Assembly: GCA_020353515.1 (NCBI GenBank)
Contig: CP070695.1
Location: 2,390,966 to 2,454,965, forward strand
Length of the DNA stretch: 64,000 bases
Source: Candidatus Heimdallarchaeota archaeon
GTDB taxonomy: Archaea; Asgardarchaeota; Heimdallarchaeia; Hodarchaeales; Hodarchaeaceae
Direction: 5' to 3'
The notes beneath the pieces were generated by a model. That model ran no database searches. It had not been told where the DNA came from and saw nothing but the letters and a program-made list of their open reading frames with translations. Below are positions 44,009 through 63,886 of the stretch, piece by piece (within the stretch, counting starts at the first letter, position 1; each line of letters starts with the position of its first letter). The position numbers were made by a program, and so were the translations under genes.

Positions 44009-44569
44009 TTATTGATATAATTTTGTAATTATCATTTCCCCAAGTGCAGAAAAAGCATAATCAACATTTGTTCCATCTTTAGCAGAAGTAGAGTAATATT
44101 CGATCTGTGAGTCTATGTTTGAGTATTTATTGACTAAATTATTGTCAATATGATCCCTCACAGTGTTAAAAGAAATTTTGATCTCATCAATCAAATCCAT
44201 TTTATTCCCTAAAACAATTATTGAGGCACTAGGTAATTCAATATTTTTTGAAAATTCTTTAAGCCACCTTTCCATGTTTTCCAGAGATCTTGGCCTAGTA
44301 AGATCAAAAACTATAAATGCTCCCGCTGATCCTTTGTAATACAATCTTCGTACTTGATCGAAAGCTGGTTGACCAGCTAAATCCCAGATTTGAAACCGAA
44401 TATCTTTCGGACCATATTCTGTATCTAAAGAAACTTGTTTAGATTGAAAATCTGAACCTAAAGTTGGAGTATATTCTAATGGAAACCCTTTTCCAAGATA
44501 CCTGTTGATTAGAGAGGTTTTACCCACCTCACCATCGCCCAGTATGCAGATTTTCGCAAGTAAAGTCAA
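44009..44569 (-). CDS. Rab-like small GTPase, copy 2
   Basis: GDGEVGKTS, YTPTLG, WDLAGQ, NKMD, SAK; no C-terminal Cys prenylation motif. Confidence 0.95.
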   Translation of the reverse strand: MTLLAKICILGDGEVGKTSLINRYLGKGFPLEYTPTLGSDFQSKQVSLDTEYGPKDIRFQIWDLAGQPAFDQVRRLYYKGSAGAFIVFDLTRPRSLENMERWLKEFSKNIELPSASIIVLGNKMDLIDEIKISFNTVRDHIDNNLVNKYSNIDSQIEYYSTSAKDGTNVDYAFSALGEMIITKLYQ

Positions 44570-44594
44570 TTCACAATCATTCTATTTCTAATGT

Positions 44595-44620
44595 AATTAA
44601 ATTTAAAAACCTAAAGTAAT
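44595..44620 (-). promoter_or_regulatory. Duplicated promoter of GTPase copy 2
   Basis: Plus-strand aattaaatttaaaaacctaaagtaat closely matches 45332-45356; contains minus-strand TTTTTAAA. Confidence 0.5.
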
Positions 44621-44728
44621 TACTACTTCAGTATTTTATCACATAAAAAAGGGATAAAAACTCTCCACTCCTGATCTCGTTCTTAATATCATCATTTATA
44701 TTATTCTAGGATAATTCCTAGCCAATCT

Positions 44729-45304
44729 TTACAAATCTCCCTTGGAGGAGTAATGTAGTTCAATTATTCTCCTCCCAAGTAGAGAAAAAGCTTTGTCTAC
44801 GTTTTCCCCAGTCTTTGCAGAGGTTTGGTAATATTCAATATGAGGATCTACGTTTGAGAATTTATCCACCAAATGATTATTTATATAACATTCAATAGTG
44901 TCGGGAAAAACCTTAACTTCATCAGTTAAATCCAATTTGTTCCCTAAAAGGAATATGGATGATTTTTCCGTTTGTATATTCTTCGAAAATTCATCTAGCC
45001 ACTTGTCCAAGTTTTCTAAAGAATCAGAGTAGGTTAAATCGAACACCAGGAATGCACCTGCAGATCCTTTATAGTACAACTTCCGAACTTGATCGAAGGC
45101 TGGTTGACCAGCTAAATCCCAGATTTGAAACTGAAGATCTTTACGACCTAATTTCGTGTCCAAAGTAACCTGTTTACTTAGAAAATCGGATCCTATTGTG
45201 GGTATATATTCTGTCGTAAAACCTCTTTTGAGATAGCTACTCATTAGCGATGTCTTTCCTACCTCCCCATCACCAAGTAGGCAGATCTTCGCAAGTAGAG
45301 GCAA
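44729..45304 (-). CDS. Rab-like small GTPase, copy 1
   Basis: GDGEVGKTS, YIPTIG, WDLAGQ, NKLD, SAK; close paralog of 44009..44569. Confidence 0.95.
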   Translation of the reverse strand: MPLLAKICLLGDGEVGKTSLMSSYLKRGFTTEYIPTIGSDFLSKQVTLDTKLGRKDLQFQIWDLAGQPAFDQVRKLYYKGSAGAFLVFDLTYSDSLENLDKWLDEFSKNIQTEKSSIFLLGNKLDLTDEVKVFPDTIECYINNHLVDKFSNVDPHIEYYQTSAKTGENVDKAFSLLGRRIIELHYSSKGDL

Positions 45305-53338: not shown

Positions 53339-55057
53339 ATGATTTCACCAAATTCTGAAAAAGACCATTTAGGAAAAGACTTCATTCGTAAAATGATTTC
53401 GGAAGATGTGAAAAATAATAAAAACAATGGCCGAGTCCATACCCGTTTTCCTCCTGAACCAAATGGCTGGCTCCATATAGGCCATGCAAAATCAATTCAT
53501 CTCAATTTCACTATCGCAGAAGAATTCAATGGATTATGTAATTTACGGTTTGATGATACTGATCCGGCAAAAGAAAGTATGGAATACGTTGAAGCCATAA
53601 AAAAAGATGTTCAATGGCTTGGGTTCGATTGGGAGGATAGACTCTATTTTGCTTCAGATTATTTTGAACAGTTATATCAATTTGCTATAGAACTGATTAA
53701 AGCTGGTAAAGCGTATATCTGTGATTTGAGTGTTTCCGAAATTAAAGAACAAAGAGGAACCTCTGAAGAACCAGGGATTGAAAGTCCGTATCGGAACCGA
53801 TCAGTAGAGGAAAATATTGATTTATTCGAGAGGATGCGTAAAGGAGAGTTTGAAGACGGTTCCCGAGTGTTACGGGCTAAGATTGATATGACTTCTCCTA
53901 ATATGCTAATGCGTGATCCAATTATGTACCGAATCAAGAGAGAAGCACATTATAGAACTGGAAACGATTGGGTAATTTATCCCAGTTATGATTATACTCA
54001 CGGTCAGTCTGATGCAATCGAAGGAATCACACATTCACTCTGTTCTTTGGAATTCGAAACTCATAGACCTCTTTATAATTGGTATAGAGATCAATTGTTA
54101 ACTTTAAACTTACTTAAATTCTGCCCAGAGCAGACTGAATTTTCACGATTGAACTTGACATATACTGTTATGAGCAAACGACGCTTATTAGAATTGGTTG
54201 AAGGTGGACATGTTTCTGGTTGGGATGATCCCCGTATGCCAACTCTTGCTGGTTTACGAAGACGTGGACTGCCCCCTGAAGCTATTAGGCGTTTCTTAGC
54301 AAAAGTAGGCATTTCTAAAAGGGAGAACTATATTGATGTGGGTCTCTTAGAATCCTGTATTCGTGAGGAATTGGATGAAACGTGTAAACGTGTGATGGCT
54401 GTATTACGGCCTTTAAAGGTTATCATCCTGAATTATCCTGAAGGTGTTGTTGAAGAGTTAGAGGCATCCAATCATCCTAAAGATTCAAGTATGGGCTCGC
54501 GAAAAATTCCATTTTCACGGATACTGTATATAGAGCGTGATGATTTTCTTGAAGATCCACCTAAAAAGTTCTATCGATTAGCTCCTGGAAGAGAAGTCCG
54601 ATTACGATATGCCTATTTCATCAAATGTGTTGATGTTATCAAAGACGGAATAAATGGCGAGATTAAAGAAGTACATGTGACTTATGATCCAGAGACTAAA
54701 GGAGGATTTGCTCCAGATGGACGTAAAGTGAAAGCTACTCTCCACTGGGTTTCAGCGAACCATGCAATTCCTGCAGAAGCACGTTTATATGATCGGCTTT
54801 TTATTAAGGAAAATCCAATGGACGATGCTAACTTCATTAAAAATCTAAATACTGATTCATTAGAGAAGCTAACCTGTTTTGTGGAATCAAGTCTTGTGAG
54901 TGCGGCTCCAGGAATGAGATACCAATTTGAACGATTAGGATATTTCTGCGTGGATTCAGTTGACTCCTCAGGTAAACGACTGGTCTTCAATCGAACAATA
55001 ACTTTACGCGATACTTGGTCTAAGCTCAAACAATCCCAAAAAAGGATGAAAAAATAA
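53339..55057 (+). CDS. glnS: Glutamine--tRNA ligase (bacterial-type GlnRS)
   Basis: [45 protein letters not shown] (GlnRS-specific; GluRS has HxxRG here), [39 protein letters not shown]. Confidence 0.95.
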
Positions 55058-55094
55058 TTTATCCTTTTATCACAAAAATCTAGTAATTTTACGT

Positions 55095-55112
55095 CCTTTT
55101 CATGTTAAAAGG
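55095..55112. terminator. Short hairpin between the converging glnS and tRNA genes
   Basis: CCTTTT-catgtt-AAAAGG inverted repeat. Confidence 0.3.
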
Positions 55113-55116
55113 GTGA

Positions 55117-55188
55117 CAGCCCCGCCCAGAATCGAACTGGGGTTATAGGATTCAGAGTCCTAAGTGATAACCGCTACACCACGGGGCT
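55117..55188 (-). tRNA. tRNA-Gln(CTG)
   Basis: AGCCCCG/CGGGGCT acceptor, TAGGA-CTCTGAA-TCCTA anticodon arm, CCCAG-TTCGATT-CTGGG T arm; discriminator G; no encoded CCA; no intron. Confidence 0.96.
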
Positions 55189-55233
55189 CATCATGCGAAT
55201 CATCATATTTAAGTCAAGTATAGAAGAAAGAAA

Positions 55234-55306
55234 CAGCCCCGCCCAGATTTGAACTGGGGTCGAGAGGGTCAAAGCCTCTTATGCTAGTCCACTACACCAC
55301 GGGGCT
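55234..55306 (-). tRNA. tRNA-Gln(TTG)
   Basis: AGCCCCG/CGGGGCT acceptor, AGAGG-CTTTGAC-CCTCT anticodon arm, CCCAG-TTCAAAT-CTGGG T arm; discriminator G; no encoded CCA. Confidence 0.96.
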
Positions 55307-55410
55307 TCAATATCTTTCTTTTTCTGATTGATAATATCCACTCTCAAAAATCTATATATCTGTTACTTTTGAATTGATTCTCTCAAAGAACCCTTTAAAT
55401 TTCTCTGAAT

Positions 55411-56904
55411 TTAATTTCCATTATTTTTAGGAATTGAGAAAGAAAAATTACTGCCTCCATCTTCTCCTTCTGATTCAACCCAGATTCTCCCCTCATGTAA
55501 TTCGACAATGGATCTTGAAATATAAAGACCTAATCCAAGTCCTTGACCTTGAACCCTGGTGACATTTTCGTTCTTTTGTAAATCAAAAATATTATCAAAA
55601 TCATCAGGATGAATTCCTCTTCCCTCATCTTTAACTGAAATCACGTACTCATGTGTAGTTTCTCTTATTGTAACGACAATTTCCCCCTCATCAGAAAATT
55701 TGACTGAGTTTTCTATCAAGTTGCGGAGTACTTGGTCAATCCTGTCTGGATCAATGTTTACTTTGTCAAATGATTCATCATCTTGTATCATATAACTTAT
55801 CTTCAGGTTATTTTTCTCAACATATTTTTGCATATTTTTTACTGTATTCACAACAATTTCTCTCAAATCAACTAACTCTTTTTCTAATTCAAATAAACCT
55901 CTCCTCAAACGAGCTAAATCATAACTCATATCGGTCATTTTTTCTATTCGATGATAATTTCTTTGAATAACATTGAATGTTTTTTGACGTTGTTCCTTAG
56001 TTAAATTTCCTTTGTTTTCATCCCGATGGAGTAACTCGATATTCCCCCACATTATAGATAATGGTGTCCGCATCTCATGTGAGGCAAAATCCATCAACTG
56101 ATTCTTAATTTCATCTAATTCCTTTAATTCTTCAAGTTGGAATTCAATAATCTGCCACGCGATATCCCTTAGGTGTTTCCGAGTAAGGACAATTATAATA
56201 ATACAGATTACTAATCCAACGGTATTTAAAACCCCTCCAATAAATAAGAAGTCTGTTGTCCGTCCAATGGCTTTGATTGTTTCCCCAATTCTACCAAACA
56301 ACCATGCAACAGCAAAGAACTTCAAATATTCCTGTTTTACAAGGAATTTTCCTTTTTTGGGGAAAAAAATGTTCGAAAACCTTTGTGAAAAGCAGGTTAT
56401 TACAAAAAATCCAATTATTGATTCTGCTACCAATAGAAATAGGAAGTACCATATATCTGTCAAGAACAATTGAAAAACCGATGCAAGGATCAGAGTTCCC
56501 CGATCAAGTAGTAAATATCTAAGTATGGAGAAAAAACCAAAAAACAAGCAAATTCCAACAAGAATTTTCTGAATTGTGTTTTGATATGAGAATTCTGCTT
56601 CTGCAATTACAAATAAAGATAGAAAAATTAACAAGGAAGTAATTGAAATTATTGTTAAGACACTAGTAACAGTATTGAAAAATTCTAATCCTTGGCTGTA
56701 CAAAGAGACATAGAGATACTGAGTAAAGTGATAACCAGTCATAGCACTGTAGGTGACTAATAAAGCTTTGTTTATCTGCGTACGAAGGTCTTGACCATCA
56801 AGAAGATAGAATAATCCCATGAAAAGGAACAACAAGGATAAAATGGTATTAGATACGTATATAAACGATAAATATATATTTGTTAATGTGATAGCCAATA
56901 CCAT
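55411..56904 (-). CDS. Multi-TM (about 7) sensor histidine kinase
   Basis: ASHEMRTPL H-box, NLIENSVKF, DEGRGI, GLGLGL. Confidence 0.94.
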   Translation of the reverse strand: MVLAITLTNIYLSFIYVSNTILSLLFLFMGLFYLLDGQDLRTQINKALLVTYSAMTGYHFTQYLYVSLYSQGLEFFNTVTSVLTIISITSLLIFLSLFVIAEAEFSYQNTIQKILVGICLFFGFFSILRYLLLDRGTLILASVFQLFLTDIWYFLFLLVAESIIGFFVITCFSQRFSNIFFPKKGKFLVKQEYLKFFAVAWLFGRIGETIKAIGRTTDFLFIGGVLNTVGLVICIIIIVLTRKHLRDIAWQIIEFQLEELKELDEIKNQLMDFASHEMRTPLSIMWGNIELLHRDENKGNLTKEQRQKTFNVIQRNYHRIEKMTDMSYDLARLRRGLFELEKELVDLREIVVNTVKNMQKYVEKNNLKISYMIQDDESFDKVNIDPDRIDQVLRNLIENSVKFSDEGEIVVTIRETTHEYVISVKDEGRGIHPDDFDNIFDLQKNENVTRVQGQGLGLGLYISRSIVELHEGRIWVESEGEDGGSNFSFSIPKNNGN

Positions 56905-63265: not shown

Positions 63266-63886
63266 ATGAAAACAAATCAAGTAATAAAAATAATAATTCC
63301 ATTAGTACTCTTATTGGGTGCCGCTACTGCTTTTATTGTTGCGGTTATTGGTAGCCAGCAAGTGAATACTACAGCAGAGACTCAAGAGTCAAATCAAGCT
63401 ACTAGTGCCTACATAGCTTTCCTCTATATTGAAGGTGTTGATGGTGAAGCTCAAGCACAGGATCATGAAAATTGGATTGAGGTTCTTGCTTATTCCCATA
63501 ATGTTATGACCGCGGATCCAACAGGTGCAGTCCGCACTGCAGGCTCAGTACAGCACGCTCCACTTCGGATTACCAAAATGGTAGATAAGGCCTCACCTAA
63601 ACTGTACGAAAAGTGTGTTAACGGTGAAACGATCGTTTCAGTAAAACTGGATTGCTGCACAGCCTTTGGCGAAGACTTGAAAGTGTTCTATCAAATTGAA
63701 CTGCAGAATGCAATGATCACTTCAGCTCAAGATTTTGGTATAGTAGCAGGAGAAGGAATTCCTACTGAGACTGTTTCTTTCACATATGAATCCATTAGAT
63801 GGACATATTCGGAATTTGATGCTGCAGGTCAAAAAAAGGGAGATATACAAACACCTTGGATCTCCACAGAGACCTCAGAAACCTAA
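63266..63886 (+). CDS. hcp: Hcp (type VI secretion tube) family protein with an N-terminal signal/TM helix
   Basis: FLYIEGVDGE...HENWIEVLAYSH, HAPLRITKMVDKASPKLY..C.NGE.I, YQIEL.NA.I, PTETVSFTYESIRWTY; GGTGA RBS at 63254-63258. Confidence 0.9.
   Translation: MKTNQVIKIIIPLVLLLGAATAFIVAVIGSQQVNTTAETQESNQATSAYIAFLYIEGVDGEAQAQDHENWIEVLAYSHNVMTADPTGAVRTAGSVQHAPLRITKMVDKASPKLYEKCVNGETIVSVKLDCCTAFGEDLKVFYQIELQNAMITSAQDFGIVAGEGIPTETVSFTYESIRWTYSEFDAAGQKKGDIQTPWISTETSET

Follow-up and report, generated by a model that had tools for sequence, protein, structure and literature searches.

A bacterial-type glutaminyl-tRNA synthetase gene linked to two tRNA-Gln genes in a Hodarchaeales archaeon retaining GluRS and GatDE

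The glnS locus and its product

The stretch of DNA considered here (the window, 64,000 nucleotides) lies at positions 2,390,966 to 2,454,965 of contig CP070695.1, assembly GCA_020353515.1, of Candidatus Heimdallarchaeota archaeon. It carries glnS, a gene for a glutaminyl-tRNA synthetase (GlnRS), followed on the opposite strand by two tRNA-Gln genes, so that the synthetase gene and both tRNA genes are convergent (Table 1). The product of glnS is, as judged from its sequence, a true GlnRS of bacterial type, and the gene belongs to a known family, within which it is unremarkable. Its host, its tRNA neighbors, and the coexistence of two routes to Gln-tRNA are new.

Table 1. Coordinates of the features discussed (window positions unless another genome or contig is named)
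Feature	Position	Strand	Description
glnS	53339..55057	+	572 aa, bacterial-type glutaminyl-tRNA synthetase, no appended N- or C-terminal domain
Convergent spacer	55058..55116		59 nt, glnS stop codon to 3' end of tRNA-Gln(CUG)
tRNA-Gln(CUG)	55117..55188	-	72 nt, intron-free, G73 and A37; ARAGORN and Rfam
tRNA-Gln(UUG)	55234..55306	-	73 nt, intron-free, G73 and A37; ARAGORN and Rfam
Two Ras-family GTPase genes	44009-45304	-	8-9 kb upstream of glnS, same contig
Hcp-like protein gene	63266-63886	+	type VI secretion system tube protein-like
Fourth tRNA-Gln (CUG)	G000 C1:3963582-3963689	-	unlinked to glnS
tRNA-Gln-like gene, genus g8	L025:1135-1206	-	ARAGORN assigned no anticodon
tRNA-Gln-like gene, genus g8	G032 C72:6538-6609		ARAGORN assigned no anticodon
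tRNA-Gln-like gene, genus g8	G040 C30:9307-9378		ARAGORN assigned no anticodon

The protein scores 715.4 bits against the NCBIfam glnS equivalog TIGR00440 (cut-off 425.8) and 345.3 bits against the archaeal gltX model, which is under the cut-off of 401.75. The Pfam domains PF00749, PF03950, and PF20974 span residues 33-539 and describe a class Ic catalytic domain followed by two beta-barrel anticodon-binding domains. In the same Pfam search, neither the eukaryotic N-terminal domain (PF04558) nor the GatB/YqeY C-terminal tail (PF02637) was matched. The class I signatures HIGH (residues 46-49) and VMSK (residues 277-280) align to H40-H43 and V267-K270 of the E. coli enzyme, and the GlnRS motifs YDYTH and THSLCSLEF are found at residues 217-221 and 231-239. 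The residues that select glutamine in E. coli, R30, Y211, S227, C229, and F233, are all conserved in the alignment as R36, Y217, S233, C235, and F239. In the glutamyl-tRNA synthetase (GluRS), the C229 column is Arg in all six archaeal sequences aligned, and the S227 column is Val, Ile, or Ala in the GluRS of the same class of archaea. The nearest solved structures are the GlnRS of P. aeruginosa (5bnz, 696 bits) and E. coli (666 bits), followed by the human (469 bits) and yeast (407 bits) enzymes, and the identity to characterized GlnRS is about 55-58% over the full length. Given these features, the Asgard enzyme would be expected to be catalytically active. The original prediction, which was made from the DNA letters alone, had described a true GlnRS with neither a eukaryotic N-terminal domain nor a YqeY tail, and this description holds. 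It had also placed the gene in convergence on both tRNA-Gln genes; the convergence and its short spacer are real, although the two linked genes are only half of the four tRNA-Gln genes in the genome.

In NCBI, the archaeal homologs bear the name "glutamine--tRNA ligase/YqeY domain fusion protein", but a YqeY domain is missing from them. The name derives from a partial match to the fusion model NF011291, and it misdescribes these proteins: in the present one, the match extends over profile positions 7-566 out of 769, and PF02637 is not matched. A close homolog of 832 aa from an ENA metagenome (P0004) shows its catalytic domain and its first anticodon-binding domain each in two stretches, which points either to a duplication within the gene or to an error of assembly. 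In two other families (f3 and f4, see below) the GlnRS genes L022, L024, L025, and L026 have longer reading frames, of about 650-690 aa. In several enzymes of these families an upstream Met adds about 45-60 residues that open with a conserved, helix-like segment (...NPELRKDA..I.EILEKKI...), and this extension may be a new N-terminal appendage that is not found in the 572-aa enzyme.

tRNA-Gln genes and the two routes to Gln-tRNA

The genome contains two glnS-linked tRNA-Gln genes with G73 and A37 and two unlinked ones with A73 and G37, of which the UUG copy lies in another piece of 308 kb and the CUG copy has an intron. ARAGORN without intron mode returned 15 tRNAs in this genome; with introns allowed, the fourth tRNA-Gln was miscalled as Phe. 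All four genes have the same A1-U72, G2-C71, C3-G70 acceptor stem and G10, and thus the body of the linked tRNA-Gln(CUG) and the acceptor stem of the linked tRNA-Gln(UUG) are archaeal. The linked and unlinked tRNA-Gln(UUG) are identical at 58 of 73 positions. Because of this identity and the common stem, the linked tRNAs are clearly altered copies of native archaeal tRNAs rather than imports. The identity set of E. coli tRNA-Gln, which we take to be G73, a weak 1-72 pair, G2-C71, G3-C70, G10, U35, G36, A37, and U38, is confirmed only partly by reviews. The linked tRNAs possess G73, the weak A1-U72 pair, G2-C71, G10, U35, G36, and A37 and deviate from the set in C3-G70 for G3-C70 and in A or C at position 38.

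The inventory of tRNA-Gln in 41 related genomes was made with a covariance model built from these tRNAs, and it shows that the bases at positions 37 and 73 covary with the presence of GlnRS. In the Hodarchaeales genus designated g1, the G73/A37 pair of CUG and UUG genes occurs in each of the 12 genomes that have GlnRS and adjoins glnS in every case that the contig reveals, and at least 10 of the 12 have A73/G37 genes elsewhere. GlnRS was not found in 10 genomes of this genus; seven have only A73/G37 genes, and in two (G010 and G016) no tRNA-Gln was identified. The tenth of these, G021, has the G73 pair at the edge of a contig. In families f2 and f5, where GlnRS was likewise not found, only A73/G37 genes occur. 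In the GlnRS-bearing families f3 and f4, a tRNA-Gln(UUG) with A37 but A73 lies just downstream of glnS, genus g8 of this group additionally has a G73 CUG tRNA, and the sole CUG isoacceptor of f4 is A73/A37. A tRNA-Gln with A37 was not seen in any lineage of the inventory that is without GlnRS. The linked set is mostly intron-free and the unlinked set mostly intron-bearing, which indicates that they are long-separate gene lineages. From completeness alone, glnS would be expected to be missing from about 3 of the 22 g1 genomes, and it is missing from 10; a genuine presence/absence variation of glnS within the genus is therefore likely.

The fourth tRNA-Gln, with CUG anticodon, A73, G37, and an intron of about 36 nt, has C33 in place of the near-universal U33, which its orthologues in sister genomes keep. 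With a G73 CUG copy now present, this gene may be in decay. Genus g8 contains, between glnS and tRNA-Gln(CUG), a tRNA-Gln-like gene with A1-U72, A73, and an apparent 6-nt anticodon loop (UUUAGG). This gene could be a pseudogene, or it could decode in an unusual way. The 3' CCA is encoded in some of the glnS-linked tRNA-Gln genes (among L019, L021, and L023-L028) and not in others, including the pair at 55117-55306. This difference may matter, given the bacterial-type CCA-adding enzymes reported in these lineages.

The components of the archaeal indirect route are also present. The genome encodes an archaeal GluRS (478 bits) together with gatE (550 bits) and gatD (455 bits), all intact, the latter two being adjacent and uninterrupted. 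Asparaginyl-tRNA synthetase is present and gatB was not found in the genome, and hence GatDE would serve only the formation of Gln-tRNA, with no role for Asn. Of the 41 relatives, 37 have a gatE that scores above the cut-off, those with GlnRS among them. Since GluRS and an intact gatE-gatD pair are kept, GlnRS appears to add to the indirect route and not to replace it, and two predicted routes to Gln-tRNA coexist in one genome. In this regard, the original prediction that the lineage had gained direct synthesis of Gln-tRNA, with the enzyme clustered with its substrates, stands as to the clustering, which is conserved in relatives; the genome has not switched from one route to the other. Two classes of GatE can be distinguished. 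Five f4 genomes (G025, G027, G029, G031, and G037) have two copies, of about 645 and 430 bits, and within genus g1 GatE splits into a group of about 540-560 bits and one of about 335-350 bits. The g1 split matches the two GlnRS subclades, in favor of a vertical descent of glnS inside this genus.

The preferred reading of these data is a division of labor. The cassette of glnS, tRNA-Gln(CUG), and tRNA-Gln(UUG) would make Gln-tRNA directly, and the ancestral route through a non-discriminating GluRS and GatDE would run in parallel on the A73/G37 tRNA-Gln genes elsewhere. Several observations weigh against it. MAGs (metagenome-assembled genomes) are incomplete and adjacent genes drop out of them together, which makes it in part trivial that glnS and the G73 tRNAs are missing jointly. 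G73 is not strictly required, since the f3/f4 enzymes coexist with A73 tRNAs. The rejection of G73/A37 tRNAs by GluRS or GatDE is hypothetical, and A37, G73, and the residue D235 are presumed to be identity or contact elements from work on E. coli, which reviews confirm only in part.

Alternatively, GlnRS is active and all four tRNA-Gln serve both routes, G73 and A37 tuning the efficiency or being neutral, and the linkage to glnS reflecting co-regulation or chance retention. The A73 tRNAs of f3 and f4, including the A73/A37 CUG isoacceptor of f4, are in line with this possibility, as are the retention of GatDE everywhere and the A1-U72 pair of all four tRNAs, a pair said to be recognized by GatDE. 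It fits less well with the G73/A37 pair in every GlnRS-bearing g1 genome, with the lack of A37 in every GlnRS-free lineage, with the upkeep of a full duplicate CUG and UUG set, and with the intron contrast between the sets. Such shared use of the tRNAs is considered doubtful, and division of labor is preferred.

Distribution and phylogeny of the archaeal GlnRS

GlnRS is above the cut-off in 24 of the 41 related genomes. In a survey of 400 Asgard genomes it was found in 41, all of which belong to three families (f1, 11/21; f3, 21/31; f4, 8/12) within a single class, and it was not found in about 330 other Asgard genomes. A similar form of GlnRS occurs across many bacterial phyla, with 65-79% identity to a bacterial query and 58-67% to the 572-aa enzyme. 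The latter is 68-70% identical to Desulfobacterota-type proteins and 56-61% identical to the archaeal f3/f4 enzymes.

A FastTree phylogeny rooted on archaeal GluRS separates a eukaryotic clade from a prokaryote-type clade that holds the Asgard sequences. With IQ-TREE, the Asgard sequences form a single clade (Shimodaira-Hasegawa-like approximate likelihood ratio test, SH-aLRT, 96.5; ultrafast bootstrap, UFBoot, 98), with one sequence from an Ignavibacteriota-labelled MAG inside. This clade is nested among bacteria, beside three sequences of Thermodesulfobacteriota and Gammaproteobacteria, with which it forms a node of 99.7/97 support. The nesting is recovered by FastTree, by quick and full IQ-TREE searches, and after removal of the fast-evolving, long-branch bacteria. 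In the alignment, two insertions, at residues 140-143 and 455-461, unite the Asgard enzymes with every bacterial GlnRS and are missing both from eukaryotic GlnRS and from GluRS. A position as sister to eukaryotes to the exclusion of bacteria conflicts with these shared insertions. The transfer of a bacterial gene into the ancestor of the three families is the best explanation of this pattern and a rather likely one. The sequence inside the Asgard clade (L140, CAVZWL010000026.1) is sister to f3/f4 with SH-aLRT 98, which suggests either that a bacterium received the gene back from archaea or that the contig was mis-binned.

Statistically, the nesting among bacteria is insecure. The backbone is ladder-like and sorted by branch length, as expected if the eukaryotic branch is drawn to fast bacterial sequences by long-branch attraction. 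In approximately unbiased (AU) tests on trees from full searches, forcing the bacteria to be monophyletic, and so splitting Asgard and eukaryotic from bacterial sequences, costs 50 log-likelihood units under LG+F+G4 (p-AU 0.094) and only 19 under the better-fitting mixture LG+C20+F+G4 (p-AU 0.26), and the split is rejected by neither test. The heimdallarchaeial GlnRS could then be sister to all bacterial GlnRS and not a late import, the enzyme having originated in the Heimdallarchaeia/proto-eukaryote lineage and passed from an Asgard-like donor to bacteria, or having been exchanged once, very early, near the base of the tree. GlnRS is limited to families of Heimdallarchaeia that are usually placed nearest to eukaryotes, the D235 column of f1, f3, and f4 matches the eukaryotic state, and the shared insertions fit such a position equally well. 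However, every free search nests the Asgard clade in bacteria, also without the long-branch taxa, and the node uniting it with the three bacterial sequences is strongly supported. Moreover, the identity of the Asgard GlnRS to those of many bacterial phyla (60-70%) exceeds that between the Asgard families (56-61%), all GlnRS-bearing Asgard genomes retain GatDE and A73 tRNAs as expected of an addition, and GlnRS was not found in the other Asgard genomes surveyed. A sister position is accordingly thought unlikely. The fuller proposal that GlnRS arose in the Heimdallarchaeia/proto-eukaryote stem, was inherited vertically by eukaryotes, and reached all bacteria from an Asgard-like donor is held to be more unlikely still; if it were true, the G73/A37 tRNAs would record the first separation of the direct route from the GatDE route. 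The original prediction had seen in an Asgard host a bearing on the origin of GlnRS, and on this point the data lean against it: the insertions and the best trees point to a horizontal transfer, the outcome that the prediction itself had named as reducing the finding, though to an old one common to three families.

At the enzyme positions that face the acceptor stem, the Asgard sequences differ from the bacterial ones. Asp235 of the E. coli enzyme is assumed here to read the 2-71 and 3-70 pairs, which reviews confirm only partly. Its column is Asp or Asn in 44 of 49 near bacterial GlnRS, Thr or Ser in f1, Val or Ile in f3/f4, and Ile, Thr, or Val in eukaryotes. In the 572-aa enzyme the equivalents of D235 and L136 are Thr and Ser. 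The replacement of D235 is consistent with an adaptation to an acceptor stem without G3-C70. A similar meaning for the L136 to Ser change was considered and rejected, as Ser occurs in only two of six f1 sequences. These two departures from E. coli at acceptor-contact positions might also be expected of a GlnRS-like paralog that charges Glu or has a non-translational role, but with the Gln-selecting residues, HIGH, and VMSK all intact, a full-length alignment to characterized GlnRS, and a score well above the equivalog cut-off, this is very improbable.

The host is a member of Hodarchaeales (Heimdallarchaeia, Asgard), in agreement with the Asgard origin considered at first. The proteins most similar to the enzyme (70-90% identity) carry the labels Hodarchaeales, Hodarchaeota, or Heimdallarchaeota, many tRNAs of the genome have introns, and two Ras-family GTPase genes lie upstream of glnS; a search of the genome for small-subunit rRNA gave no match. 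The assembly is a MAG of 4.94 Mb with 96% completeness and an estimated contamination of 7.4%. Its single-contig record consists of more than 100 pieces joined by runs of 100 N, and closure of the genome is therefore unsupported. The locus itself lies within a 219-kb piece of uniform GC content of about 0.35. The arrangement of glnS and tRNA-Gln recurs in at least 12 other MAGs and in two further families. Independently built contigs from two sediment metagenomes bridge the NMO-glnS junction and the glnS-tRNA-tRNA junction, with 55290-55504 uncovered in run X1 and parts of the locus uncovered in run X2. In a strain variant from the second sample, 70 nt in the spacer region are replaced by 27 nt and the link between glnS and the tRNAs is retained. 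No RNA run was found that contains the locus. The fragmented record, the estimated contamination, and the bacterial type of the protein might have suggested bacterial contamination or a chimeric join, but this is effectively excluded, its probability being negligible, because of the conserved synteny and the bridged junctions, to which the uniform piece, the nearby GTPase genes, and the flanking tRNAs with archaeal A1-U72 and the acceptor stem of the other tRNA-Gln of the genome may be added.

Proposed history and relation to known systems

The following history is proposed as the best explanation of the whole, comprising an old bacterial transfer, adapted native tRNA copies, and parallel routes, and it is regarded as moderately probable. 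An ancestor of three Heimdallarchaeia families would have received a bacterial-type GlnRS gene through horizontal transfer, and the gene would afterwards have been inherited largely vertically, with losses. The archaeal tRNA-Gln, with A73 and G37, would have fitted poorly with the identity elements that such an enzyme recognizes, and because of this mismatch the native tRNA-Gln copies placed beside glnS would have acquired A37 in all three families and G73 as well in the Hodarchaeales genus g1. The enzyme, in turn, would have lost the Asp that reads G3-C70 in E. coli.

The Asgard enzyme resembles bacterial GlnRS (E. coli GlnS, 1GTR/1QTQ; P. aeruginosa, 5BNZ) in its three domains without appendages, both insertions, its full-length scores of 666-696 bits, and its conserved HIGH, VMSK, and Gln-selecting residues. 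It differs in its archaeal host, in the changes of D235 to Thr and L136 to Ser, and in its presumed substrates, which have A1-U72 and C3-G70 and not U1-A72 and G3-C70. Eukaryotic cytosolic GlnRS (human 4YE6, yeast 4H3S) belongs to the same class and shares the Gln-selecting residues and a non-acidic D235 column. In contrast to the Asgard enzyme, it possesses PF04558, lacks the two insertions, scores 407-469 bits, and falls in a separate clade, and eukaryotic tRNA-Gln has U73 where the linked tRNAs have G73. The indirect route of archaea, GluRS and GatDE acting on an A73 tRNA-Gln, is apparently intact in the same genome with its A1-U72/A73/G37 tRNAs. However, in described archaea it is the sole route, whereas in this genome it is accompanied by a direct route that has tRNA genes of its own.

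A comparable case is GluRS2 of Helicobacter pylori, for which a review describes a joint change of a Glx-family synthetase and of the acceptor-stem identity elements of tRNA-Gln. There, a GluRS duplication within the indirect route is involved, whereas here a foreign GlnRS is combined with modified native tRNA copies. A 2026 preprint reports a bacterial-type CCA-adding enzyme, also a bacterial tRNA-handling enzyme, in Hodarchaeales and Heimdallarchaeaceae and not in other Asgard. That enzyme replaced the archaeal one in Hodarchaeales, unlike the present case, in which the archaeal Gln route was kept.

Reviews up to 2022 state that GlnRS is absent from all archaea, and one of 2022 ascribes this lack to base 73 of tRNA-Gln, which is A in archaea, G in bacteria, and U in eukaryotes, so that archaeal tRNA-Gln would be orthogonal to both bacterial and eukaryotic GlnRS. 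In the literature searched, an archaeal GlnRS is mentioned once, in passing, in a preprint that places it beside cox genes (coxABC) in Hodarchaeales and Kariarchaeaceae. This neighborhood does not apply to the present genome, as COX1 was not found in it (96% complete) and the surroundings of glnS are free of cox genes out to 9 kb. No description of a covariation of tRNA-Gln bases with GlnRS was found in the literature searched. The novelty of the locus lies in its archaeal host, its hybrid tRNAs, and the coexistence of the two routes.

The bearing of these findings on the origin of eukaryotic GlnRS hinges on the phylogeny, and the data lean against such a bearing. For the biology of these archaea, the locus is a natural counter-example to the absence of GlnRS from the domain, and its enzyme is a second bacterial tRNA-handling enzyme in the Asgard lineages closest to eukaryotes. 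It seems to reveal the way across the barrier, in that copies of the native tRNAs beside the imported gene gained the bases that the enzyme reads and the old route was kept together with its tRNAs. The genome would hold two natural Gln-tRNA systems that may be orthogonal to each other, and a 25-year-old hypothesis of orthogonality becomes testable with the four tRNAs and three enzymes of a single organism.

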